Shown here in pieces: positions 97 to 10,732 of a stretch of 10,732 nucleotides of DNA; the first letter of the stretch is position 1; each line of letters opens with the position of its first letter. The stretch comes from a virus (taxonomy: Duplodnaviria > Heunggongvirae > Uroviricota > Caudoviricetes). A model generated the notes under the pieces. That model was not told the DNA's origin and did no database searches. It saw only the letters and a program-made list of their open reading frames with translations. Where the stretch lies: the IMG/VR virus record IMGVR_UViG_2541047163_000014. The stretch is one strand, 5' to 3'. Position numbers and translations under genes: made by a program.

Positions 97-106
97 TGGG
101 GTGAAT

Positions 107-3022
107 ATGGCAGTAAAGATTTCAGGTGTACTGAAAGACGGCACAGGAAAACCAGTACAGAACTGCACCATTCAACTGAAAGCCAGACGTAACAGCGCCA
201 CGGTGGTGGTGAACACGGTGGCCTCTGAAAATCCGGATGAAGCCGGTCGTTACAGCATGGACGTTGAGTACGGTCAGTACAGCGTTATTCTGTTGGTGGA
301 AGGGTTCCCGCCGTCACATGCCGGGACCATCACCGTGTATGAAGATTCTCAACCCGGTACGCTGAATGATTTTCTTGGTGCCATGACTGAGGATGATGTC
401 CGTCCGGAGGCACTGCGCCGTTTTGAGCTGATGGTGGAAGAGGTGGCGCGTAACGCGTCCGCGGTGGCACAGAACACGGCAGCCGCGAAGAAGTCAGCCA
501 GCGATGCCAGCACATCAGCCCGTGAGGCGGCAACCCATGCGACTGATGCTGCGGACTCAGCACGCGCAGCCAGCACGTCAGCCGGACAGGCCGCGTCGTC
601 GGCTCAGTCAGCGTCTTCCAGCGCAGGAACGGCATCAACAAAGGCTACTGAAGCATCAAAAAGTGCTGCCGCTGCAGAGTCCTCAAAAAGCGCGGCGGCT
701 ACCAGTGCCGGTGCGGCGAAAACGTCAGAAACGAATGCGGCAGTGTCACAACAATCAGCCGCCACTTCTGCATCCACCGCGACCACGAAAGCGTCAGAAG
801 CTGCCTCCTCAGCCAGGGATGCGTCGGCTTCAAAAGAGGCGGCAAAATCATCAGAAACGAGCGCAGCCTCGAGCGCCAGTAGTGCAGCCTCCTCGGCAAC
901 GGCGGCAGGCAATTCCGCGAAGGCGGCCAAAACGTCTGAGACAAACGCTAAGTCCTCTGAAACGGCAGCAGAACAGAGTGCCTCCGCAGCAGCAGGCTCA
1001 AAAACAGCGGCTGCATTATCTGCCAGTGCCGCGTCAACAAGTGCCGGGCAGGCCTCAGCCAGTGCCACCGCCGCCGGAAAATCGGCAGAAAGTGCCGCAT
1101 CGTCTGCTTCAACAGCCACAACGAAGGCTGGCGAAGCCACTGAACAGGCCAGCGCAGCAGCGAGTTCTGCTTCCGCAGCGAAGACATCCGAAACGAACGC
1201 GAAAGCGTCGGAAACCAGCGCAGAATCCTCAAAAACGGCTGCCGCATCGTCAGCCAGTTCGGCGGCGTCATCGGCATCATCTGCGTCTGCTTCAAAAGAT
1301 GAGGCGACCAGACAAGCGTCAGCAGCGAAGAGCAGCGCCACGACGGCATCCACGAAGGCGACAGAGGCAGCTGGTAGTGCGACGGCAGCAGCTCAGAGCA
1401 AAAGTACGGCGGAATCTGCAGCAACGCGCGCTGAGACAGCGGCAAAACGGGCAGAGGATATTGCATCCGCCGTGGCGCTTGAGGATGCGAGCACGACGAA
1501 AAAGGGGATAGTACAGCTCAGCAGTGCGACTAACAGCACTTCCGAGTCACTGGCGGCAACGCCAAAAGCCGTTAAGGCCGCGTATGAGCTGGCTAACGGG
1601 AAATACACCGCACAGGATGCAACGACAGCACAGAAAGGGATAGTTCAGCTTAGCAACGCGACCAACAGCACATCTGAAATGCTGGCGGCAACGCCAAAGT
1701 CGGTAAAGGCAGCCTATGACCTTGCTAACGGGAAATATACTGCTCAGGACGCTACGACAGCACAAAAAGGAATTGTCCAGCTCAGTAGTGCAACCAACAG
1801 CGCATCTGAAACGCTTGCCGCGACACCGAAAGCAGTGAAAGCAGCTAATGATAATGCGAATGGTCGGGTACCTTCTGCCCGTAAGGTGAATGGTAAGGCG
1901 CTTTCATCGGATATAACACTGACGCCGAAAGATATTGGTACGCTTAACTCAACAACAATGTCATTCAGCGGTGGTGCTGGTTGGTTCAAATTAGCAACGG
2001 TAACCATGCCACAGGCGAGTTCTGTTGTTTCAATTACGTTGATTGGTGGCGCGGGATTTAACGTGGGGTCACCTCAACAGGCAGGTATATCTGAACTTGT
2101 TTTGCGTGCAGGTAATGGTAATCCGAAGGGGATTACTGGTGCTTTATGGCAGCGCACATCGACAGGGTTTACAAATTTTGCCTGGGTCAATACATCTGGT
2201 GATACTTACGATATTTACGTTGCAATCGGAAATTATGCGACTGGTGTAAATATTCAATGGGATTATACCAGTAATGCCAGCGTGACGATTCATACGTCAC
2301 CAGCATATTCTGCTAATAAGCCGGAAGGGTTAACGGACGGTACAGTTTATTCACTCTATACGCCATCAGAGCAGTTTTATCCGCCTGGCGCACCAATCCC
2401 GTGGCCATCAGATACCGTTCCGTCTGGCTATGCCCTGATGCAGGGGCAGACTTTTGACAAATCTGCATACCCGAAACTTGCAGCCGCTTATCCGTCAGGC
2501 GTGATCCCTGATATGCGTGGCTGGACGATTAAGGGCAAACCTGCCAGTGGTCGGGCCGTATTGTCTCAGGAACAGGACGGCATTAAATCGCACACCCACA
2601 GCGCCAGCGCATCCAGTACGGATTTGGGGACGAAAACCACATCGTCGTTTGATTACGGCACTAAATCCACGAATAACACCGGGGCGCACACGCACAGTGT
2701 GAGCGGTACAGCCGCAAGTGCCGGAAACCATACTCATAGTGTCACAGGCGCATCAGCAGTCAGCCAGTGGTCACAAAATGGGTCAGTACATAAGGTAGTG
2801 TCTGCGGCCAGTGTGAATACAAGTGCTGCAGGAGCGCACACTCATAGTGTCAGCGGCACAGCTGCATCTGCAGGTGCTCACGCACATACTGTCGGTATTG
2901 GTGCTCATACGCACTCTGTTGCGATTGGCTCACATGGACACACCATCACCGTTAACGCTGCGGGTAACGCGGAAAACACTGTCAAAAACATCGCATTTAA
3001 CTACATTGTGAGGCTTGCATAA
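107..3022 (+). CDS. stf: Side tail fibre protein, lambda Stf / StfR-like (the ORF track starts at GTG 101; ATG 107 giving [12 protein letters not shown] is the more likely start)
   Basis: N-terminus [26 protein letters not shown]...[34 protein letters not shown] matches the lambda Stf N-terminal domain as I remember it. It is followed by a long Ala/Ser/Thr-rich low-complexity shaft, three tandem ~42-aa repeats ([42 protein letters not shown]) and a C-terminal module with His-x-His repeats ([15 protein letters not shown]...) ending [11 protein letters not shown], typical of Stf / P2 gpH / T4 gp37-type fibre tips. GGGG lies upstream of the ATG. Confidence 0.93.
1490..1850 (+). repeat. Three tandem ~126-bp coding repeats (42-aa units) within stf
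   Basis: Protein-level triple repeat [43 protein letters not shown] / [44 protein letters not shown] / [30 protein letters not shown]. The DNA copies differ mostly at synonymous positions. Confidence 0.8.
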
Positions 3023-3600
3023 TGGCATTCAGAATGAGTGAACAACCACGGACCATAAAAATTTATAATCTGCTGACCGGAACTAATGAATTTATTGGTG
3101 AAGGTGACGCATATATTCCGCCTCATACAGGTCTGCCAGCAAACAGTACCTATATTGCACCGCCAGATATTCCGGCTGGCTTCGTGGCTGTTTTCAACAG
3201 TGATGAGGCATCGTGGCATCTCGTTGAAGATCATCGGGGTAAAACGGTTTATGACGTGGCTTCCGGCGACGCGTTATTTATTTCTGAACTCGGTCCGTTA
3301 CCGGAAAATGTTACCTGGTTGTCGCCGGATGGAGAGTGTCAGAAGTGGAACGGCACATCCTGGGCGAAAGATGCAGAAGCAGAAAAACTGTTTCGGGTAC
3401 GGGAGGCAGAAGAAACAAAAAACAGCCTGATGCAGGTAGCCAGTGAGCATATTGCGCCACTTCAGGATGCCGTAGATTTGGATATTGCGACGGAGGAAGA
3501 GGCATCGTTACTGGCTGCATGGAAGACATATCGGGTATTGTTGAATCGTGTTGATACAACAGTAGCAGCGGATGTTGAGTGGCCAGTCGCCCCACAATAA
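3022..3600 (+). CDS. tfa: Tail fibre assembly protein (Tfa family chaperone)
   Basis: 192-aa product directly downstream of stf, with the ATG overlapping the stf TAA stop (TAATG). The sequence ([49 protein letters not shown]...EWPVAPQ) resembles lambda/Rac-type Tfa proteins, and the position is the canonical one for a fibre chaperone. Confidence 0.88.
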
Positions 3601-3643: not shown

Positions 3644-4216
3644 CTATTTATACAATACAACACCACTCTTTTTAGTTATATATGTGCAGTTTGATGGTAT
3701 ATCTTTATTTATAAAAGACATTGCACCTATTTTTACATTATCCCCAATTTTACGTGATAATCCAATGATGCAACAATTAGCTCCGATATCAACGTTACTA
3801 CCAATTTTTACTCTTGAACTAGGCATATCACCATCTATCTGTCCAATGGTAGTATTCTGTCGTAATACCAGATTTTCACCCGCATCAACAGCAAAATGAA
3901 CAACAATTCCAGCATGATGGGGAATTGTCAACCCTTTTCCAATATTTGCGCCCAATCCTATTTCACAACCAAACTTGTTAATTATTTTACTGTTTAACTT
4001 TTTGGCTGCTTTCTTATGTAATTTATTACCATTAATATACATTTCGTTAGCCAACCGCCACCAGAAAAGGAAATTCCGGTTACGCTGCTTTTTCTCTCTT
4101 AAAAGCCTCCAGATATCCATACGTTTCCGCCGAATTACTTCATGTTTCCAGAAGTTTTTTAAATTAGTAGAGTTTCCAAATAAAACAAAGTGAATTGCCA
4201 TTAAGTAAGATAGCAC
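3644..4216 (-). CDS. Hexapeptide-repeat (left-handed beta-helix) acetyltransferase, serine-acetyltransferase (CysE/WcaB)-like; AT-rich moron. Start probably GTG 4216 (AAGGAG 6 nt upstream) or ATG 4201; the ORF-track GTG at 4249 is less likely
   Basis: Translation contains the SAT-family core ...FWWRLANEMYINGNKLHKKAAKKLNSKIINKFGCEIGLGANIGKGLTIPHHAGIVVHFAVDAGENLVLRQNTTIGQIDGDMPSSRVKIGSNVDIGANCCIIGLSRKIGDNVKIGAMSFINKDIPSN. That is an amphipathic N-terminal helix segment followed by [LIV]-G-x-x-x-x hexapeptide repeats. G+C is strikingly low (roughly one-third by eye) compared with the flanking phage genes. Stop is TAG at 3644-3646. Confidence 0.8.
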   Translation of the reverse strand: MLSYLMAIHFVLFGNSTNLKNFWKHEVIRRKRMDIWRLLREKKQRNRNFLFWWRLANEMYINGNKLHKKAAKKLNSKIINKFGCEIGLGANIGKGLTIPHHAGIVVHFAVDAGENLVLRQNTTIGQIDGDMPSSRVKIGSNVDIGANCCIIGLSRKIGDNVKIGAMSFINKDIPSNCTYITKKSGVVLYK

Positions 4217-4267
4217 GATAATCTCCTTAATTATTATTTCAGACCACACATGTTATAAGGTTAAGAG

Positions 4268-4372: not shown

Positions 4373-4867
4373 TCAGAGCAGCCCCTTAACTGAGCTGGCC
4401 GCGCTATTAAGGGATGATGTCACCTTATCTTTGAAGCCGGACAGCATATCGCTGAACGATGAGGATTGCAGGCGCTCCCGCAAATCCTCATCACAGCGTT
4501 CAAGAGTCAGTGAAAATTCTATCTTTTTCGCCTTACCGTAGCGATCAAACTCGGAGCGGGTCGTATTCGTTCCGGTCAGGACATACATGCCGTAAATCTG
4601 CCCGACGCCATCAATCAAAGGCCAAGGACGTCCTGTATATGCCTGCGTGGTCAACAACGACAGCGACACTTCGCCACCAGTAATCTCAGGATAAAGAACA
4701 CCAGAAAGAACGATGCGATCATCACCTGCACCGATATACTGCCAGCTTGCTGAACGGTTAACGCGTTCATTTTTCACATGTCGCCAGCTTTTGTTTTGCT
4801 GTAACTGCTGATGCGGCAACGTGCGCAGCTCAAAAACAAACATGCCGTAGATCATCATCATGGCCAT
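4373..4867 (-). CDS. Phage tail protein, P2 gpU-like (true start may be one of the ATGs at 4861/4858 rather than 4867)
   Basis: Translation MAMMMIYGMFVFELRTLPHQQL...IVLSGVLYPEITGG...IYGMYVLTG...KIEFSLTLERCDE... matches the conserved gpU family pattern. It lies immediately downstream of the tape measure stop, as in the P2 FI-FII-E-T-U-D order. Confidence 0.85.
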   Translation of the reverse strand: MAMMMIYGMFVFELRTLPHQQLQQNKSWRHVKNERVNRSASWQYIGAGDDRIVLSGVLYPEITGGEVSLSLLTTQAYTGRPWPLIDGVGQIYGMYVLTGTNTTRSEFDRYGKAKKIEFSLTLERCDEDLRERLQSSSFSDMLSGFKDKVTSSLNSAASSVKGLL

Positions 4868-4873
4868 GACTCC

Positions 4874-5710
4874 TCAATCTTTATCGTAAAAACTGCCACG
4901 CCTGGCACGGGCGCGCCGTTCCATTTCTGCCCTGACCATTTCGCCGACCAGTTTCGCCAGTTCGCGGGGATTCTGCGTAACAACGTTATGCAGATGAACA
5001 TGAATTTCACCGCCAAATCCGGAGGCAACAGGCTCCCGGTTACGGGAAGTTGCAGGAACTGATGCCACTGGCGATCGTATGGCCTCCACCACCGGGCGGG
5101 AGCTGGCCGCAACAACAGGGACCAGCGCCGGAGGCAGCGGAGCCGGGACCACGGGTGTGATATTAATTGCGGGGGCAGGCTTACTGACCTGCGCAATCTT
5201 CCGCTCCTGCCACTCCCCACGAACAGCAAGTGCGCGGGGCAGGTTCTTAAAGACAATATCGCCGGGGCCAATGCGTTTTTTTGTCTCATCAACCAGCTTA
5301 CCTGTGTTATCAGCAATTTTGCTGAGTCTGCGTAGCGTGCCGGTATTGCTGTCTGTGAGAGGTTTGTTGTCTTTGGGTTTATCATCTCCGGTGCCATTGC
5401 TATTTCCCGCAGACTTCGGCGGATTGATTTTCGCAATGTCTCCCTGAAACAGAGCAACCTTGTCCTGAAGAATGGCCGCACGTTGTGCGTCTTCGATTTT
5501 CTTGCGCGCCCTTTCCGCTTCATCCGGAAGCACACCGAGTTTTTCAAGTATCCACGCCAGCGTATCCAGCAACATTTTTGCAGGCGTCAGAACAAGCTGT
5601 AACGCACCACCAAGAACGTTACCGAATACCTCGCCAGCACTGGTACATTTATCCAGCGTTTCCTTGCTGGACTCCATCGGTGACAGCAGCGATTTAAACC
5701 AGTTAAACAC
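4874..5710 (-). CDS. Tail tape measure protein, C-terminal about 280 codons in a different frame (continuation of the gpT-like gene after the apparent frameshift)
   Basis: This ORF overlaps the 3' end of the 5587..7713 ORF in another frame. Its sequence (FNWFKSLLSPMESSKETLDKCTSAGEVFGNVLGGALQLV...) continues naturally from ...FERFGPVFDVIGSG if one base is restored near 5719-5721. It ends 6 nt before the gpU start. P2-type operons have no separate gene between T and U. Confidence 0.75.
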   Translation of the reverse strand: MFNWFKSLLSPMESSKETLDKCTSAGEVFGNVLGGALQLVLTPAKMLLDTLAWILEKLGVLPDEAERARKKIEDAQRAAILQDKVALFQGDIAKINPPKSAGNSNGTGDDKPKDNKPLTDSNTGTLRRLSKIADNTGKLVDETKKRIGPGDIVFKNLPRALAVRGEWQERKIAQVSKPAPAINITPVVPAPLPPALVPVVAASSRPVVEAIRSPVASVPATSRNREPVASGFGGEIHVHLHNVVTQNPRELAKLVGEMVRAEMERRARARRGSFYDKD

Positions 5711-7713
5711 CTGGCTGAACCGCTTCCGATTACGTCAAAAACAGGGCCAAACCGTTCAAAGGTGTCGCGCAACGGGGTCAGCCTTTCCATAATCCCGCTG
5801 AACACCCCGGCAAAGAAAGCCCTGATAGGATCCCAGTATTTCCAGATAAGAACGGCAGCTCCGGCAAGCGCAGCCACGATAAGACCAACCGGACTGAACA
5901 ACGCCCCGATAACGCCTCCCAGTAAAGAAACGGAACCCGTCACCATTCCCCATAGCGCAGGTAACACCCTGACGACATTCATTGACCGGGTAAGAATGTC
6001 AAAACCAAGACGCAGGGTGGCCAGCTTCCCGTAAAGCACCCCAATAACCAGCGACAACGAGCCAATCGTTGCAGTCATTGCCAGCAACGCACCGCCTGCT
6101 ATCAGTAGCTGGCGCGTCAGTACCGGATGGGCCTGCGCCAGCGAGGTGATTTTTTCAAGCACCCGCGTGAGCCACTGCGTGACAGAACGCAGCGGACCGT
6201 CAACCAGATCACTGATGCGAATACGAAGACCTTCCCATGCGCTGTCGAGATTTTTCAGGTCCCCATCAAGATTATCAGCCATTACTTTTGCGACGCGATC
6301 GGCCTCTCCCCTTGCCCCCTGCAATTCTCTGGTCAGTTTTTGCAGCTCTCCTGAACCAGCCGCCGCAACAAGCGTCTGCAAACCAACGAACGCCTCTTCT
6401 CCGGCGATGTCCTTGAAGAAGGAGACCTGGTCCACCTGTCCGTATTTTTGTGTCGCCTTATAGAGATCAAGCAGCACATCCTCCATCGGGCGCATTTTGC
6501 CTCTGGCGTCAGCAACTGACACCCCCAGCTCTTTCAGTGCATCAGCCGCAGCTTTTGGCGGTGATGCAAGGCGGGACAGACTTGCGCGCATGGCCGTGCC
6601 AGCATCGCTTCCGCGAAGACCATTATTGGCAAGCATCCCGGCCATGGCCGCCGCTTCTTCAAGACTGATACCAAGTTTTGCGGCAACCGGACCGGTATAC
6701 TTCATGGTTTCGCCCAGCGCGCGTAAATCAGTATTGGTCCGGGTAAATGCTGCTGTCAGCGTATCGCCCACCCGGTCCATTTGATCGGCTGTCAGGTTGA
6801 ACTGTGTGAGGATATTGGAGCCTATATCAGCCGTCTCGCCGAGTTCGACGCCACCTGCCAGCGCCATATTAAGAACACCGGGCAATGCGGCCTGAATGGC
6901 CTGCGGAGTAAAACCAGCCATTGCCAGAAAGCTCTGCCCACTGGCGGCATCACTCGCAGTAAACTGTGTTTCAGCAAGTTTTAACGCCTGCTCACGCAGC
7001 GCCTTAAACTGCGGGCTGTTTTTGTCGATTCGCGTCAGTGCCTGAACGCGGGACATCTCTTTGCCGAACCCGATCGCAGGCTGCAAAAAACGCCCGGCAG
7101 CATAGCCGCCCGCCGCTGCCGCACCAATTGCCAGCGCACCACCTGTTTTCAGTTTTCCCGCGGTTTCCTGCGCGTGCGAATACCGCTCACGCGCCTGCGT
7201 TACACGCGCAAGCGCCTGCCGTTCGCGTTCAAGCTGGTTGTTGTATTGTTCGGTGCGTCTGATGGCCTGCTGAATGGTGTTATCGCTGCCTGTCAGGGAA
7301 ATGCCGTGGCGTTTCAGCTCTCCGCCAAGTTCCCTCATTTTCTGAATTTCCCGTGTGCGCGATTCATTCAGGCGTTCAAGCCGGGTGCTTAACTGCTGCA
7401 TCAGCTTTTGTTGTTTTTCGCTGAGCACTGTACCCGTGCGTTGTAACTGATTAAGGGCGTTAAGCTGGCGTCGTGCTTTCACGATGCCAGCATCCGCTTT
7501 ACTGACAGCGTCGCGGGCGCGCTCAAATGATCGCGCCTGACGCTCGAGATTTTTGATCGCCCCCTGCGTTCGCTGGATGGAGTCACCAAACTGCCCCATC
7601 AGGCGGCGTGCGTTTTCGGCAGGTCGGGTCAGCCTGTCAACGGCGCTGAAAGCGACCCGGATATCAAGAGTCTTCATTGTCTGCATTCCCGCTGCGAAGT
7701 GCCGCCCGCTCAC
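5587..7713 (-). CDS. Tail tape measure protein (P2 gpT-like), N-terminal about 660 codons; the reading frame breaks near 5715-5740 (likely start ATG 7677 or 7686 rather than GTG 7713)
   Basis: Long, helical, Ala/Leu/Gln/Arg-rich protein with a hydrophobic Gly-rich segment (LIAGGALLAMTATIGSLSLVIGVLYG...GGVIGALFSPVGLIVAALAGAAVLIW) typical of tape measure proteins, positioned between E' and U. The last ~45 residues of this ORF (SARCLTGLNRCCHRWSPARKRW...) look like out-of-frame translation. Confidence 0.8.
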   Translation of the reverse strand: MSGRHFAAGMQTMKTLDIRVAFSAVDRLTRPAENARRLMGQFGDSIQRTQGAIKNLERQARSFERARDAVSKADAGIVKARRQLNALNQLQRTGTVLSEKQQKLMQQLSTRLERLNESRTREIQKMRELGGELKRHGISLTGSDNTIQQAIRRTEQYNNQLERERQALARVTQARERYSHAQETAGKLKTGGALAIGAAAAGGYAAGRFLQPAIGFGKEMSRVQALTRIDKNSPQFKALREQALKLAETQFTASDAASGQSFLAMAGFTPQAIQAALPGVLNMALAGGVELGETADIGSNILTQFNLTADQMDRVGDTLTAAFTRTNTDLRALGETMKYTGPVAAKLGISLEEAAAMAGMLANNGLRGSDAGTAMRASLSRLASPPKAAADALKELGVSVADARGKMRPMEDVLLDLYKATQKYGQVDQVSFFKDIAGEEAFVGLQTLVAAAGSGELQKLTRELQGARGEADRVAKVMADNLDGDLKNLDSAWEGLRIRISDLVDGPLRSVTQWLTRVLEKITSLAQAHPVLTRQLLIAGGALLAMTATIGSLSLVIGVLYGKLATLRLGFDILTRSMNVVRVLPALWGMVTGSVSLLGGVIGALFSPVGLIVAALAGAAVLIWKYWDPIRAFFAGVFSGIMERLTPLRDTFERFGPVFDVIGSGSARCLTGLNRCCHRWSPARKRWINVPVLARYSVTFLVVRYSLF

Positions 7714-8193
7714 GCCAGCTAACCACTTCGCCGGGCGTCATCATGAAGATTTCGGCGGGCGACCAGTTAAAAATAACGGCAATATCTGCCACAAAGTCTT
7801 CTATGTGCTCAAAGCACACAACCGTGATCAGGCTTCCGTCGCCTGTTCGTTCTTCCCGCCAGAGTCCGCACCGCTCAAAAAATTTACGGCAACCACACAT
7901 AACTGAATAAAGTCACGGGATGCCATTTTTTTGATCGTCACTTCATCCAGTCGCGGTGATGTCACGCGTGACAGCAGCGTAAACATGGATTCCGCTTTCA
8001 GATTCAGCACATCAGACAGCGACAAATCTCGCAGAGATCCAGCCTGCTCAATAGCCCCGGTGATCTCCACATACGTGATTTTTTCGCCGCCTCGCTCAAT
8101 TGGTTGGGTAAGTTTTACACCACGCTCACTGGTTTCTTTCACAGTGTCAGTAACTACCGTGTTTTCGGTATCGATGTTTTTCGTCTCTTTCAT
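7664..8193 (-). CDS. gpE+E'-like fusion product made by programmed -1 translational frameshift (E' extension 7664..7875 in the -1 frame)
   Basis: A -1 frame ORF (7664..7900) overlaps the end of E. On the - strand the sequence AAT TTT TTG contains the slippery heptamer T TTT TTG. The -1 frame continues ...KFFERCGLWREERTGDGSLITVVCFEHIEDFVADIAVIFNWSPAEIFMMTPGEVVSWRERAALRSG, resembling the conserved E' tail. Confidence 0.75.
7828..8193 (-). CDS. Tail assembly chaperone, P2 gpE-like
   Basis: 121-aa ORF between the tube and tape measure genes, with AAGGAG 7 nt upstream of the ATG. The C-terminus ...CVVAVNFLSGADSGGKNEQATEA spans the slippery heptamer. Confidence 0.8.
   Translation of the reverse strand: MKETKNIDTENTVVTDTVKETSERGVKLTQPIERGGEKITYVEITGAIEQAGSLRDLSLSDVLNLKAESMFTLLSRVTSPRLDEVTIKKMASRDFIQLCVVAVNFLSGADSGGKNEQATEA
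7876..7882 (-). other. Slippery heptamer TTTTTTG (- strand) for the E/E' -1 programmed ribosomal frameshift
   Basis: + strand caaaaaa at 7876-7882 is TTTTTTG on the - strand, in X XXY YYZ register with the E frame (AAT TTT TTG). Confidence 0.75.
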
Positions 8194-8247
8194 CAGGAAA
8201 CTCCTTTCAGTCAGAGGCGACGCACTGCGCCGCCTGCATATTACTTA

Positions 8248-8760
8248 TCAGCCAAGCCCAAGCGCGGAACGGATGCGATCGGGCACAATGTCCTTGCCGT
8301 CCTTCCGGTAAATGAAGTTCAGCAGGTCAATCTCCCACAACGGGCGATCGTTAACACTCAGCTTGTAGTAGGTGTTTTTAATGGCGTAAGTGTGTGATGT
8401 GGCTTCGCCCTGTTTGGCTTCCCCCATATCAATTTCCGTCACACGTCCGCGCATTTCGACTTCATACAGGTCGCTTTCATCATCGGTGTAGTATTCCCCC
8501 GCAAAACGCAGTAGCGTGCCGTCAATCGTGCCGCCATACTTCAGGAACAGCTCACGAACTGCGCCCCCCATGACAAAGCTCGCATCAAGCGCGGAGTCGT
8601 CCAGGCCGAGGTCAATACTTACCGCACCCATCATGCCACCACCCCGGTAGCTGTCGGTTTTGCGCGTCAGTTTAGGCAGGGTGACGGACGTCACCTTACC
8701 CACTTCGTTTTCACCATCCACAAACAGCGTAAAAAAGCGAAGATGTTTTGGTACAGCCAT
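8248..8760 (-). CDS. Tail tube protein, P2 gpFII-like
   Basis: Translation MAVPKHLRFFTLFVDGENEVGKVTSVTLPKLTRKTDSYRGGGMMGAVSIDLGLDD...YYKLSVNDRPLWEIDLLNFIYRKDG matches the FII tube family pattern (RFFTL.VDG...YRGGGM...YYKLS...EID). The start overlaps the sheath stop (ATGA-type coupling). Confidence 0.9.
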   Translation of the reverse strand: MAVPKHLRFFTLFVDGENEVGKVTSVTLPKLTRKTDSYRGGGMMGAVSIDLGLDDSALDASFVMGGAVRELFLKYGGTIDGTLLRFAGEYYTDDESDLYEVEMRGRVTEIDMGEAKQGEATSHTYAIKNTYYKLSVNDRPLWEIDLLNFIYRKDGKDIVPDRIRSALGLG

Positions 8761-9944
8761 CAGGCACCTCCCAGCACCGCAAATGCGGGACCAAAGAATT
8801 CATCAGTAAACGACTGGTAAAGCTCCATGTCTTCCAGCGGAGGAACGGGCGTATATTTGTAGCGAATACGCACACGCCCCTGACGTAAATTCGTGGTGCT
8901 GTTATCCTCGATGTCATACCAGCACTCCGCGCCAATCAGTTTCCCGGCAGTAACCAGTGAATCCAGTTTTGCCCTGATGGCACTGATAACATCCTTCACG
9001 TTCGCAGGTGTCAGTGGACTGTCGATGGTTTCAAACTGCGCTTCCGCAATTGAATCAGCCAGCACCTGTGCGGTTCGGGTATACACCTCAAAGATGTAGG
9101 CGTTCGTTTCCGGTGTGCGGTTGCCCCAGAAGCGGAACCCGTTGCGACGAATAATGGTCGTGATTTCTTTGTTGTTGAGGCTGTTGGCATCACTGTCTTC
9201 GGCCTGCAACGACCAGAACACATGCCTCGACATCCCAAGCACATTTTTAACCGGAACGTTGGACAGCGATTTGTGCCAGCCCTGCTCATGGTCAATGTAC
9301 GCACGAAGGCCGCACGCATAAGCAGGCGCGGGGAACGTTTCGTTTTTGCCACTTTTCAGGTTGTAGGCGATGAAGTCAGGCCATAAGAGCATCACCTCAC
9401 GTTCGTTGAATTTCTGGCGGTAGGTAATCGCCTCAGCCATCGTGTTACAACCATGACATGTGGCATACACAAACGCGCGCAGTTTACCCGCAATCACGCA
9501 CAGGGATTTTGTTACCGCCTCCGTGTCCAGCTCCGGCGCGGCCAGAATACGCGGACGGTATCCGATGCTTTCATCCTGCTCTGCAACAAGCAGCGCATAC
9601 ATCCCCGTATAGCTGCCGTCAGATTCAGAACCACCGATAACCAGTTGATCCTGCGTCTTACCGCCTTCTTCTTTGTGTTCAGCCACGCGAACGACGATCA
9701 CTTTTGTGCTCACCTGGTCTGCGATAGCCTTAAGCGCACGATAAAGCGTCCCCGTAGTCCCGCATTTTCCCAGCACGTCATTGACGCGGGTCAGCAGTGT
9801 GGGCTTGTTCAGCGGGAACAGCTCCGCGTCCGCATCATCTGCCGTTGCCACGATACCGATAACACTGGAATCAACATCATTAATCGCTGTTACCAGGTCG
9901 GTACTTTCCGTAACACGGGCACCATGAAAACGAGTTTCACTCAT
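8760..9944 (-). CDS. Contractile tail sheath protein, P2 gpFI-like
   Basis: 394-aa product (MSETRFHGARVTESTDLVTAINDVDSSVIGIVATADDADAELFPLNKPTLLTRVNDVLGKCGTTGTLYRALKAIADQ...) resembling P2 FI-family sheath proteins. AAGGGG ribosome-binding site 8 nt upstream of the ATG. It lies immediately upstream of the tube gene. Confidence 0.9.
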   Translation of the reverse strand: MSETRFHGARVTESTDLVTAINDVDSSVIGIVATADDADAELFPLNKPTLLTRVNDVLGKCGTTGTLYRALKAIADQVSTKVIVVRVAEHKEEGGKTQDQLVIGGSESDGSYTGMYALLVAEQDESIGYRPRILAAPELDTEAVTKSLCVIAGKLRAFVYATCHGCNTMAEAITYRQKFNEREVMLLWPDFIAYNLKSGKNETFPAPAYACGLRAYIDHEQGWHKSLSNVPVKNVLGMSRHVFWSLQAEDSDANSLNNKEITTIIRRNGFRFWGNRTPETNAYIFEVYTRTAQVLADSIAEAQFETIDSPLTPANVKDVISAIRAKLDSLVTAGKLIGAECWYDIEDNSTTNLRQGRVRIRYKYTPVPPLEDMELYQSFTDEFFGPAFAVLGGA

Positions 9945-10101
9945 AGCTTCAGCCCCTTGTATCCGTTAAATGATTCGGCAACAATCATCACCCACCACGC
10001 GCGTAATCTCACCCCTGCGCCGTTCTCCCGCCACGGCGACAACAAAAAGCAGTAACCCCCTCCGCACGCACATGCGACCATGCCGCACAGGGAGGGAACA
10101 G

Positions 10102-10368
10102 ATGACCGACACCACCATGCAATTGCTCAGTCAGGGCACAGACCACGTGAAAGTGCCGGATTTTGATATTCTCGCGGAGGGTAAAACGCTGTCAGGCGTG
10201 GCAGAGCGCCTGATGAGCCTGTCACTGACCGACAACCGGGGATTTGAGGCGGACCAGCTCACCATCACGCTGGATGATGCAGATGGTCAGTTGCAGCTAC
10301 CGCCACGGGGCGCGCGCCTGACGGTTCTCATTGGCTGGAAAGGAGAACCGCTGACAGAAAAAGGCACT
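10102..10368 (+). pseudogene. P2 gpD-like tail protein (late control gene D family), N-terminal ~90 codons only; truncated by IS insertion
   Basis: From ATG 10102 (GGGAGGGA upstream): MTDTTMQLLSQGTDHVKVPDFDILAEGKTLSGVAERLMSLSLTDNRGFEADQLTITLDDADGQLQLPPRGARLTVLIGWKGEPLTEKG, which contains the gpD-family N-terminal signature (LSLT.TDNRGFEADQL.I.LDD.DG...PRRGA.L...GW.G). The frame then runs into IS terminal inverted-repeat sequence at about 10369 and stops. Full-length gpD is about 390 aa. Confidence 0.75.
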
Positions 10369-10519
10369 TGTAGATTCAATCTGTCAATGCAACACCCCTT
10401 TCAATTATCTCTTTCGGTGTTTTGAACTTCAGTGTCTTTCTCGGTCTGTTGTTTAGCTGAGCAGCAACCAGATCTTCATGTTGAGTATATTGGGCAAGAC
10501 ATGTCTTTTTAGGAAAGTA
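10369..10519 (-). mobile_element. IS30-family insertion sequence, terminal fragment (inverted repeat plus the last ~47 codons of the transposase gene)
   Basis: TGTAGATTCAATCTGTCAATGCAACACC at 10369 closely resembles the IS30 terminal inverted repeat (TGTAGATTCAAT.GGTCAA.GCAAC) as I remember it. The - strand encodes ...YFPKKTCLAQYTQHEDLVAAQLNNRPRKTLKFKTPKEIIERGVALTD-stop, with the stop inside the inverted repeat, as in IS30-family transposases. The fragment ends abruptly at the IS3-family end. Confidence 0.7.
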
Positions 10520-10732
10520 TGAACCGCCCCGGTTTTCCTGGAGAGTGTTTTATCTGTGAACTCAGGCTGCCAGATCATCGTTTCCGATGGAAGCATAATA
10601 AGCTTTTTCTGCTTCTGCCGGAGGAGTATGGCCCAGCCTTCCCAGCAATCGTCGATTGTTATACCAGTCCACCCACGTTAGTGTGGCCAGTTCCACTTCT
10701 GCACGGTTTTTCCAGCTCTTACGGTGTATTAC
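10520..10732 (-). mobile_element. IS3-family element (IS629/IS1203-like), terminal inverted repeat plus 3' end of transposase orfB; continues beyond the window
   Basis: The end sequence TGAACCGCCCCGG... is a typical IS3-family terminal inverted repeat (TG...). The - strand encodes ...VIHRKSWKNRAEVELATLTWVDWYNNRRLLGRLGHTPPAEAEKAYYASIGNDDLAA-stop (stop at 10562-10564), a typical IS3-family orfB C-terminus. Confidence 0.75.

Follow-up and report, generated by a model that had tools for sequence, protein, structure and literature searches.

A probable P2-type E/E+E' recoding site in the tail module of a decayed P88-like prophage

The window, meaning the whole 10,732-nt stretch of DNA that was analysed, carries a block of phage tail genes on the minus strand. 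Pfam matches give the gene order as FI-FII-E-E'-T-U. The tail sheath gene FI (8760..9944, minus strand) is recognized by PF04984, PF22671 and PF17482. The tail tube gene FII (8248..8760, minus strand; PF04985, 1.3e-47) lies directly upstream of E. The block continues with the tape measure gene T (4874..7677, minus strand), assigned by PF10145 (7.9e-55) and alignment to phage P88, and the tail gene U (4373..4867, minus strand; PF06995, 1.5e-38). A 1-nt deletion near 5718 disrupts T and splits it into ORFs 7713..5587 and 5710..4874. O157:H7 F7349 has the same deletion, and RefSeq labels its copy of the gene 'frameshifted'. A remnant of the late control/tail gene D is found on the plus strand (9970..10369), identified by homology to P88 and by the RefSeq annotation of a 100% identical stretch in O157:H7 F7349. 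The stretch that it shares with P88 and with E. coli 55989 stops at 10369, where IS30/IS1203 sequence starts. The E-E' region is 99.5% identical at the nucleotide level to Escherichia phage P88 (Peduoviridae, Xuanwuvirus). The two differ by 3 substitutions in 661 nt, all of them in E, and E' is 100% identical. An initial sequence-only reading had taken the block for a P2-type contractile tail module. The neighbouring FI, FII, T and U genes and the identity to P88 agree with this, and sequence comparison identifies it as such a module in a decayed P88-like prophage.

Gene E (7828..8193, minus strand) runs from an ATG at 8193 to a stop at 7828 by ORF reading. It encodes a 121-aa protein in the zero frame, assigned as the short product of a tail assembly chaperone by the ORF, phrog_103 and BLASTP against P2 gpE. 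A Shine-Dalgarno (SD) sequence, AAGGAG (8201..8206, minus strand), can be read 7 nt ahead of the ATG. Near the end of the gene, the codons of E read GTA AAT TTT TTG AGC. A scripted register check places T_TTT_TTG (7882..7876, minus strand) as an X_XXY_YYZ heptamer in the zero-frame register within the E/E' overlap, just as the sequence-only reading had described it. A second in-register heptamer, A_AAT_TTT (7885..7879), was overlooked in that reading. The two overlap to form a tandem slippery site, A_AAT_TTT_TTG (7876..7885, minus strand). From 7912 onwards the -1 frame stays open as far as a TGA at 7666..7664, and it overlaps E by 82 nt. It runs 54 codons beyond the E stop and ends 14 nt inside T, whose ATG lies at 7677. 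The continuation of this frame after a shift, E' (7664..7876, minus strand), would comprise 70 aa and a stop, as indicated by translation, PF06528, phrog_1756 and alignment with nine other E+E' proteins. A P2-style join (8193..7876 + 7876..7664) gives an E+E' fusion of 176 aa. The stretch from the heptamer to the E stop (7828..7875, minus strand) is dual-coding, with the C-terminus of E in frame 0 and the N-terminus of E' in frame -1. The heptamer alone is unremarkable, as TTTTTTG occurs 6 times on both strands of the window against 2.8 expected. By contrast, the overlap offers 27 in-register positions, at which chance would supply ~0.004 occurrences of TTTTTTG and ~0.04 of any X_XXY_YYZ heptamer, the latter expectation being derived from the wrong-register rate over 91 related loci.

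Both halves of the predicted fusion are homologous to their P2 counterparts. An alignment with P2 E and E+E' had been proposed as a check, and it bears the assignment out. E matches P2 gpE with 32% identity over 85 aa (BLASTP, E 6e-12), and the 176-aa fusion aligns to P2 E+E' through the junction (BLASTP, 31% identity, E 3e-26). The family phrog_103 takes both the E of the window (2.3e-35) and P2 gpE (6.4e-45), whereas Pfam PF10109 (Phage_TAC_7) gives the former 17.2 bits, under its cutoff of 25, and the latter 47.8. The -1 extension is similar to E' proteins, as anticipated: PF06528 (Phage_P2_GpE) matches fusion residues 135-170 with 45.3 bits (cutoff 23; E 6.1e-12), and phrog_1756 matches the E' part at 6e-39. 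A 10-phage alignment shows an invariant pattern in E', D..AD.A..F.W.P...R..A..R. Tblastn of the fusion against phages returned 2-piece (two-frame) matches across diverse Peduoviridae. Gene E of P2 (NC_001895) carries TTTTTTG in the same register, at aligned F-L codons, and its annotation gives this as the site of the -1 frameshift to E+E'; the heptamer named for P2 in the sequence-only reading is the one present here. This site for P2 is also given by PMC3091744, which reports that P2 makes E and E+E' from one start by a -1 shift (citing Christie 2002 and Xu 2004), and the basis for regarding both P2 products as essential is the GenBank note 'essential tail protein' only. The E+E' profile retrieved nothing from PDB sequences at E<=1, and NCBIfam has no model matching E or E+E'. 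An AlphaFold2 single-sequence model of the 176-aa fusion reached a mean pLDDT of 40.8 and was discarded.

The predicted recoding site is conserved throughout the family. An in-register X_XXY_YYZ heptamer is located within the overlap in 87 of 91 related loci, and TTTTTTG is by far the commonest site (70 of the 91). The other heptamers among the surveyed loci are TTTTTTA/C/T, CCCTTTC/T, AAATTTT and GGGAAAG. The automated scan found no heptamer in 4 loci, comprising phiE12-2 and truncated or degraded loci; phiE12-2 does carry TTTTTTG, and the motif assignment of the scan was wrong there. Over the 91 loci, 105 heptamers lie in register in ~3400 positions, compared with 9 in ~6800 positions of the two wrong registers. 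Of 80 close IMG/VR relatives, 78 share A_AAT_TTT_TTG without change; these relatives are 98-100% identical and informative only on the invariance of the site. A set of 23 distinct relatives showed that the heptamer is the exact point at which the -1 frame takes over from the zero frame as the better conserved. Upstream of it, the zero frame is better conserved (mean pairwise amino acid identity of 0.57 vs 0.30), and from the heptamer to the E stop it is the -1 frame (0.59 vs 0.43). Stop codons close the -1 frame shortly before the heptamer in 14 of these 23 relatives.

Judged from sequence, the site is very probably the orthologue of the P2 E/E+E' recoding site in a P88-like (Xuanwuvirus, Peduoviridae) prophage. 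We infer that it would act through ribosomal slippage. Most ribosomes would translate gene E from its own strong ribosome binding site to the stop at 7828 and produce the 121-aa E. A minority would slip back 1 nt on A_AAU_UUU_UUG (7885..7876), where the tRNAs in the P and A sites would re-pair in the -1 frame (Asn/Phe on A_AAU_UUU, or Phe/Leu on U_UUU_UUG). The shifted ribosomes would read 70 further codons to the stop at 7664, which overlaps the start of T, and would thereby make the 176-aa E+E'. Analogy to P2 and lambda G/GT suggests that the E part common to both products may coat the tape measure and that the E' part may recruit the tube protein, with the E:E+E' ratio presumably fixed by the slippage frequency. 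The -1 frameshift of P2-type tail chaperones is already well known and a textbook case. The paper on P88 (PMC5285337) does not mention the frameshift.

In the genome of the window, the site is likely an inert relic, its signal left intact through recent decay of the prophage and under no present selection. The deletion in T, common to O157:H7 F7349, and the truncation of D by IS30/IS1203 both point this way, and the fusion is of no use in this genome because T and D are inactivated. With E' identical to that of viable P88 and E only 3 substitutions away in the 661 nt compared, the decay is simply recent. The sequence-only reading had remarked that recoding was preserved even though other genes are damaged. 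This holds as a description and carries no weight on selection, given the 99.5% identity to viable P88. An inert relic is compatible with the identity of the site as a P2-type recoding site, and limits only what may be concluded from its preservation.

The P2-type recoding reading leaves two heptamers to choose from. The shift could take place at the upstream A_AAU_UUU (7885..7879), alone or together with U_UUU_UUG, although we lean against it. TTTTTTG, the heptamer shared with P2, would then be one of two operative sites in this genus or no operative site at all. The sister Xuanwuvirus clade, 84% identical in nucleotides, reads GTA AAT TTT ATG; it retains A_AAT_TTT and is devoid of TTTTTTG. 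It includes Citrobacter phage phiSM, described as fully functional and plaque-forming (PMC6456863). Other relatives carry comparable tandem sites, CCCTTTTTTG and GGGTTTTTTG. In E. coli reporters U_UUU_UUG shifts weakly, at 0.12% when unstimulated and at 0.77% when combined with the IS3 pseudoknot, with which AAAUUUU reaches 11.4%; without a stimulator, however, AAAUUUU gives 0.07%, no better than UUUUUUG (PMC4066793 Table S3). No stimulator was found here, and the prevalence of TTTTTTG in the family (70/91 loci) also speaks against the upstream heptamer. The products of the two heptamers lie one residue apart, VNF-FERC vs VNFL-ERC. The predicted tryptic junction peptides of the two alternatives are ...DFIQLCVVAVNFLER or ...VAVNFFER. 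The heptamer differs within one genus, A_AAT_TTT_TTG vs A_AAT_TTT_ATG; the latter belongs to the other Xuanwuvirus subclade (phages 503458, 520873, P88_4B11 and phiSM).

Stimulators of the dnaX/IS3 type were defined as a hairpin or pseudoknot located 5-9 nt past the heptamer and an SD-like element 6-17 nt before it. The prediction of RNA secondary structure downstream of the heptamer, which the sequence-only reading had suggested as a check, returned no such stimulator. The fold of positions +4..+63 has a z-score of +0.68 in the window, with no stimulatory structure. A family fold scan of 84 loci gave a mean z of -0.15, with only 2 loci under -2. RNAalifold with a column-shuffle control gave a consensus of 0.0 kcal and no structure for 30 window-type loci, and Rfam gave no match. 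A hairpin from the single-sequence fold of 7890..7780 (z -1.78) was rejected, as it begins ~55 nt downstream, too far for a stimulator. No SD-like 4-mer is present upstream in the window between -20 and -4. An upstream SD-like element occurs in 8 of 28 window-type loci, compared with all 35 P2-type loci. It is conceivable, if rather doubtful, that the operative site of the P88/Xuanwuvirus lineage is A_AAU_UUU or a two-isoform tandem A_AAU_UUU_UUG, and not the U_UUU_UUG typical of P2. Since U_UUU_UUG performs near background in E. coli reporters and neither a structure nor an SD-like element is visible in this lineage, an unrecognized stimulator could also set the E:E+E' ratio. Candidates for it could be the E peptide as it emerges, the codon context or a factor acting in trans.

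E' might also be a stand-alone small gene with its own start and no frameshift, which we consider very improbable. Candidate starts do exist, namely GTG 7819 for a 51-aa 'GpE family phage tail protein' and, in the -1 frame of the window, ATG 7900 for a 78-aa ORF. A stand-alone 156-nt CDS is listed by GenBank for P88 and by RefSeq for E. coli 55989 and O157:H7 F7349. However, neither start is preceded by an SD sequence, and the sister clade lacks ATG 7900. The conserved W-R-x-E-R-G-G-D-G lies upstream of GTG 7819, in the overlap, where the -1 frame is the better conserved. Stops a few codons ahead of the heptamer shut the -1 frame of relatives, and Serratia phage KSP20 has no ATG, GTG or TTG between that stop and the conserved residues. 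The frameshift product reported for P2 E+E' likewise begins at the E start (PMC3091744, citing Christie 2002 and Xu 2004). E' thus has no translation start of its own, as it lacks an SD sequence, its ATG is unconserved and the conservation of the -1 frame starts at the heptamer. The extent of 7664-7900 initially given for the feature does equal the -1 ORF from this internal ATG, but the relevant E' begins at the heptamer.

Transcriptional slippage usually takes a homopolymer of about 8-9 nt or more, and the run at this site is T6. That RNA polymerase drops one U in this run, yielding the long product with no ribosomal slip, is very improbable, even if U7/A7 runs can give transcriptional indels (PMC4066793): with the same two-frame architecture, AAATTTTA (T4) stands in the sister Xuanwuvirus clade, to which plaque-forming phiSM belongs, CCCTTTC of Klebsiella phage Kp4846-1 and GGGAAAG of Mannheimia phages contain no long homopolymer, and the conserved X_XXY_YYZ codon register (105 in, 9 out) is a constraint that fits tRNA re-pairing and not polymerase slippage.

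The main value of the P2-type E/E+E' assignment is for annotation. Among the records examined for this lineage and the sister Xuanwuvirus clade, those in GenBank and RefSeq treat E and a 51-aa 'GpE family' protein as two unjoined genes in P88, phage 503458, P88_4B11, Chuche, E. coli 55989 and O157:H7 F7349, and the phiSM record leaves out E' altogether. Those records should carry a joined E+E' CDS like that of P2. The finding also confirms the P2-type contractile tail module. The variation of the heptamer within one genus, together with the lack of a visible stimulator for a heptamer that is poor in E. coli reporters, is mildly interesting.

The closest known system is E/E+E' of the P2 FETUD operon (P2p25/P2p26). 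In both, the genes lie between those for tube protein FII and tape measure T, the -1 extension of ~50-70 aa ends inside the T start, T_TTT_TTG occupies the same register at aligned F-L codons, and both halves are homologous, E by a common PHROG and E' by a common Pfam family. The two systems differ in several respects. E has 91 aa in P2 and 121 aa in the window, where it bears an N-terminal extension. The heptamer lies 18 nt before the E stop in P2 and 45 nt before it in the window, so the dual-coding stretch is longer in the window. Alignment places a 14-residue insertion just past the junction in the E' of the window, and the overlapping extra heptamer A_AAT_TTT also sets the window apart. 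The window lacks the SD-like GGTAAGGTG that 35 of 35 P2-type loci carry 4-13 nt upstream. Gene D is divergent from FI in the window and not downstream of U, a layout shared by P88. P88 has the same slippery context and E', but it is viable and keeps both T (935 aa) and D intact, whereas the copy in the window belongs to a decayed prophage. The -1 frameshifts of dnaX and IS3/IS911 also use an in-register tandem-slippage heptamer; the window differs in that neither a hairpin or pseudoknot downstream nor an SD-like element upstream is detectable. Finally, the analogy to lambda G/GT drawn in the sequence-only reading is sound, as both systems have two overlapping ORFs between the major tail or tube gene and the tape measure gene that are related by a -1 shift at a slippery sequence. 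The likeness is one of gene layout, and sequence similarity is not expected. The lambda heptamer is G_GGA_AAG, its tail is non-contractile, and the partner of E' here would be the tube protein FII instead of gpV. The ratio of long to short product in lambda is low and fixed, about 1:30. More generally, tail genes of dsDNA phages use an X_XXY_YYZ heptamer, on which the -1 shift occurs at low frequency, to make products that share their N-terminus (PMC5009743, citing Levin 1993; Xu, Hendrix, Duda 2004).

Gene E of the window encodes 121 aa between 8193 (ATG) and 7828 (stop) on the - strand, with AAGGAG before the start codon (8206..8201). TTTTTTG at 7882..7876 (- strand) is phased T_TTT_TTG within the E codons GTA AAT TTT TTG AGC, the X_XXY_YYZ register that tandem -1 slippage needs, as the sequence-only reading had stated. 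That reading noted only this heptamer. A second in-register heptamer, A_AAT_TTT, overlaps it, giving a tandem site A_AAT_TTT_TTG at 7885..7876 (- strand). From 7912 the -1 frame meets no stop until 7664; it overlaps E by 82 nt, extends 54 codons past the E stop and ends 14 nt within the tape-measure gene T (ATG at 7677). The interval 7664..7900 is the same frame measured from an internal ATG that lacks an SD and is not conserved. TTTTTTG occurs six times in the window versus 2.8 expected; by itself it is unremarkable, and what gives it weight is its register, position and homology. The + strand match at 7927-7933 is an A7 run inside E (7926-7932, - strand; ATC AAA AAA ATG, I-K-K-M), 44 nt upstream of the slippery site. 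The phase of this run, XXX_YYY_Z, offers no tandem-slip heptamer, and a -1 frame stop follows at 7915..7913; a slip there would merely truncate E.

By Pfam, the genes flanking E and E' are sheath FI, tube FII, tape measure T and tail protein U, in agreement with the proposed P2-type tail module. Over the 661 nt surrounding the site, the window shares 99.5% identity with Escherichia phage P88 (Peduoviridae, Xuanwuvirus). The 176-aa fusion, read as E to the heptamer and then in the -1 frame, aligns with P2 E+E' across the junction (31% identity, E-value 3e-26). E alone matches P2 gpE at 6e-12, and both belong to phrog_103; E is below threshold for PF10109, where P2 gpE scores 47.8 bits. The -1 part resembles E', as had been expected, matching PF06528 'Phage P2 GpE' (6e-12) and phrog_1756 (6e-39). 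The P2 record annotates the E+E' -1 frameshift site at GGT TTT TTG, with the heptamer and register of the window, and the junction residues F-L line up in a 10-phage protein alignment; the heptamer that the sequence-only reading named for P2 is indeed the same. In P2, a single start serves both E (91 aa) and, through the shift at TTTTTTG, E+E' (142 aa), and P2-like Burkholderia phages conserve the site without a downstream structure (PMC3091744).

Searching phage genomes with the fusion (tblastn) gave two-piece, two-frame matches across Peduoviridae of Klebsiella, Serratia, Yersinia, Vibrio and Mannheimia. A survey covered 91 loci: 80 in species-representative genomes, located by the E' motif, and 11 in phages or the window. 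In 87 of them the E/E' overlap contains one or more in-register X_XXY_YYZ heptamers; the other four are truncated, degraded or mis-assigned by motif. The overlaps hold 105 heptamers in register versus 9 in the two wrong registers combined. TTTTTTG is present in 70 loci, and others carry TTTTTTA/C/T, CCCTTTT/C, AAATTTT, GGGTTTT or GGGAAAG. In Mannheimia phage vB_MhM_1127AP1 (L091, 706-716), a lambda-type G_GGA_AAG lies further downstream in E, so that within Peduoviridae the heptamer drifts in both identity and position; the submitters of that record remarked on the slippery sequence. Transcriptional slippage could be proposed as the source of the long product, but non-homopolymer sites (CCCTTTC, GGGAAAG and AAATTTTA) are all present among relatives. 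Because the family-wide conserved feature is the codon-phased X_XXY_YYZ pattern and not a homopolymer, the comparison points to ribosomal tandem slippage.

Conservation changes frame at the heptamer. Among 23 distinct loci of the window subtype, mean pairwise identity over the 16 upstream codons is 0.57 in the zero frame versus 0.30 in the -1 frame, which contains stops there in 14 loci. Over the 16 codons downstream, before the E stop, the values are 0.43 and 0.59. The better-conserved frame thus passes from zero to -1, as a frameshift at this position predicts. Databases annotate E' as a free-standing 51-aa GpE gene beginning after the E stop, which is contradicted by a switch that occurs before that stop. 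The E and E' proteins are already filed under the relevant families; the sole gap is the joined E+E' CDS, missing from the examined GenBank and RefSeq records of the genus Xuanwuvirus.

The downstream RNA structure that the sequence-only reading had suggested looking for did not appear. The 60 nt downstream of the heptamer fold no better than shuffles (z +0.68 in the window; mean -0.15 over 84 loci), RNAalifold gave no consensus structure for 30 window-type loci, and Rfam had no match at the site. The 20 nt upstream of the heptamer in the window contain no SD-like 4-mer. In P2-type loci, where the heptamer lies 18 nt before the E stop, GGTAAGGTG is found upstream of it in 35/35. The SD-like GGTAAGGTG(G/A)T of these E genes (P2, 2665-2685, and the 35 loci among L126-L172) ends 4-7 nt before TTTTTTG; of the 28 window-type loci, only 8 have any SD-like 4-mer at that place. 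The P2-type element may act as a frameshift stimulator, or may simply reflect conserved A-G-K-V codons. In E. coli reporters, UUUUUUG gave 0.12% frameshifting without a stimulator and 0.77% with the IS3 pseudoknot, and AAAUUUU gave 0.07% and 11.4% (Sharma et al. 2014, Table S3; PMC4066793).

The other Xuanwuvirus subclade, comprising phages 503458, P88_4B11 and Citrobacter phage phiSM (L085, L175 and L174; 84% nt identity), reads A_AAT_TTT_ATG where aligned to window 7876-7885. With codons GTA AAT TTT ATG, it keeps only A_AAT_TTT; a single T-to-A change, Leu to Met in E and Phe to Tyr in E', removed TTTTTTG. phiSM is reported to be a fully functional plaque-forming phage (PMC6456863). The shift in the window may thus use either heptamer, or both. 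A contribution from A_AAT_TTT there is possible, at somewhat below even likelihood. The two products would lie one residue apart (NFL-ER or NF-FER).

The earlier proposal that recoding is preserved despite gene damage holds in part: the signal is intact, and T and D are broken. T (4874-7677, - strand) has a 1-nt deletion near 5718 relative to P88 (GGGATCAG to GGTTCAG), which yields two ORFs (7713..5587 and 5710..4874). The identical lesion occurs in E. coli O157:H7 F7349, where RefSeq labels the gene 'frameshifted'. The centre of T (~6250-7000) is far more diverged from P88 than its ends, with ~170 mismatches in 750 nt and many small compensating indels, which suggests a mosaic segment. The late control/tail gene D (from 9970, + strand) is cut after ~130 codons at 10369, where its homology stops and IS30/IS1203 sequence starts (IS1203 belongs to the IS3 family). 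The 9970-10732 stretch is 100% identical to F7349, whose prophage adjoins tRNA-Leu/Cys/Gly and pgsA-uvrC. With the T deletion and the D truncation, the tail module is predicted to be unable to work. Only three substitutions in 661 nt, none in E', separate E-E' from P88, and the intact signal would reflect recent decay, not continued selection.

Elsewhere in the window, 101-3600 (+ strand) carries a tail fibre ORF of 973 aa that is intact (PF08400, PF03406 repeats, Collar), together with a tail fibre assembly gene of 192 aa (PF02413). Among the listed complete E. coli genomes covering >80% of the window, the match leaves out the first ~1,510 nt, including the 5' part of the fibre gene, and the fibre N-terminal part appears to be a different allele. 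Between the fibre assembly gene and U, at 3644-4249 (- strand), is a serine O-acetyltransferase-like hexapeptide-repeat gene with NCBIfam EpsC/CysE/WcaB-like matches, all under cutoff. P88 has a DNA invertase at this place. The gene is probably cargo (a moron), and its product is possibly a surface-polysaccharide acetylase.

The host context is a P88-like defective prophage of O157:H7-type E. coli. Sites of this kind are already known; what is new here is minor, namely the tandem arrangement of heptamers, heptamer variation within the genus, and a site without a visible stimulator. The sequence comparisons support the site as the known P2-family E/E+E' programmed -1 frameshift, which, as the sequence-only reading had proposed, is analogous to lambda G/GT (PMC5009743).
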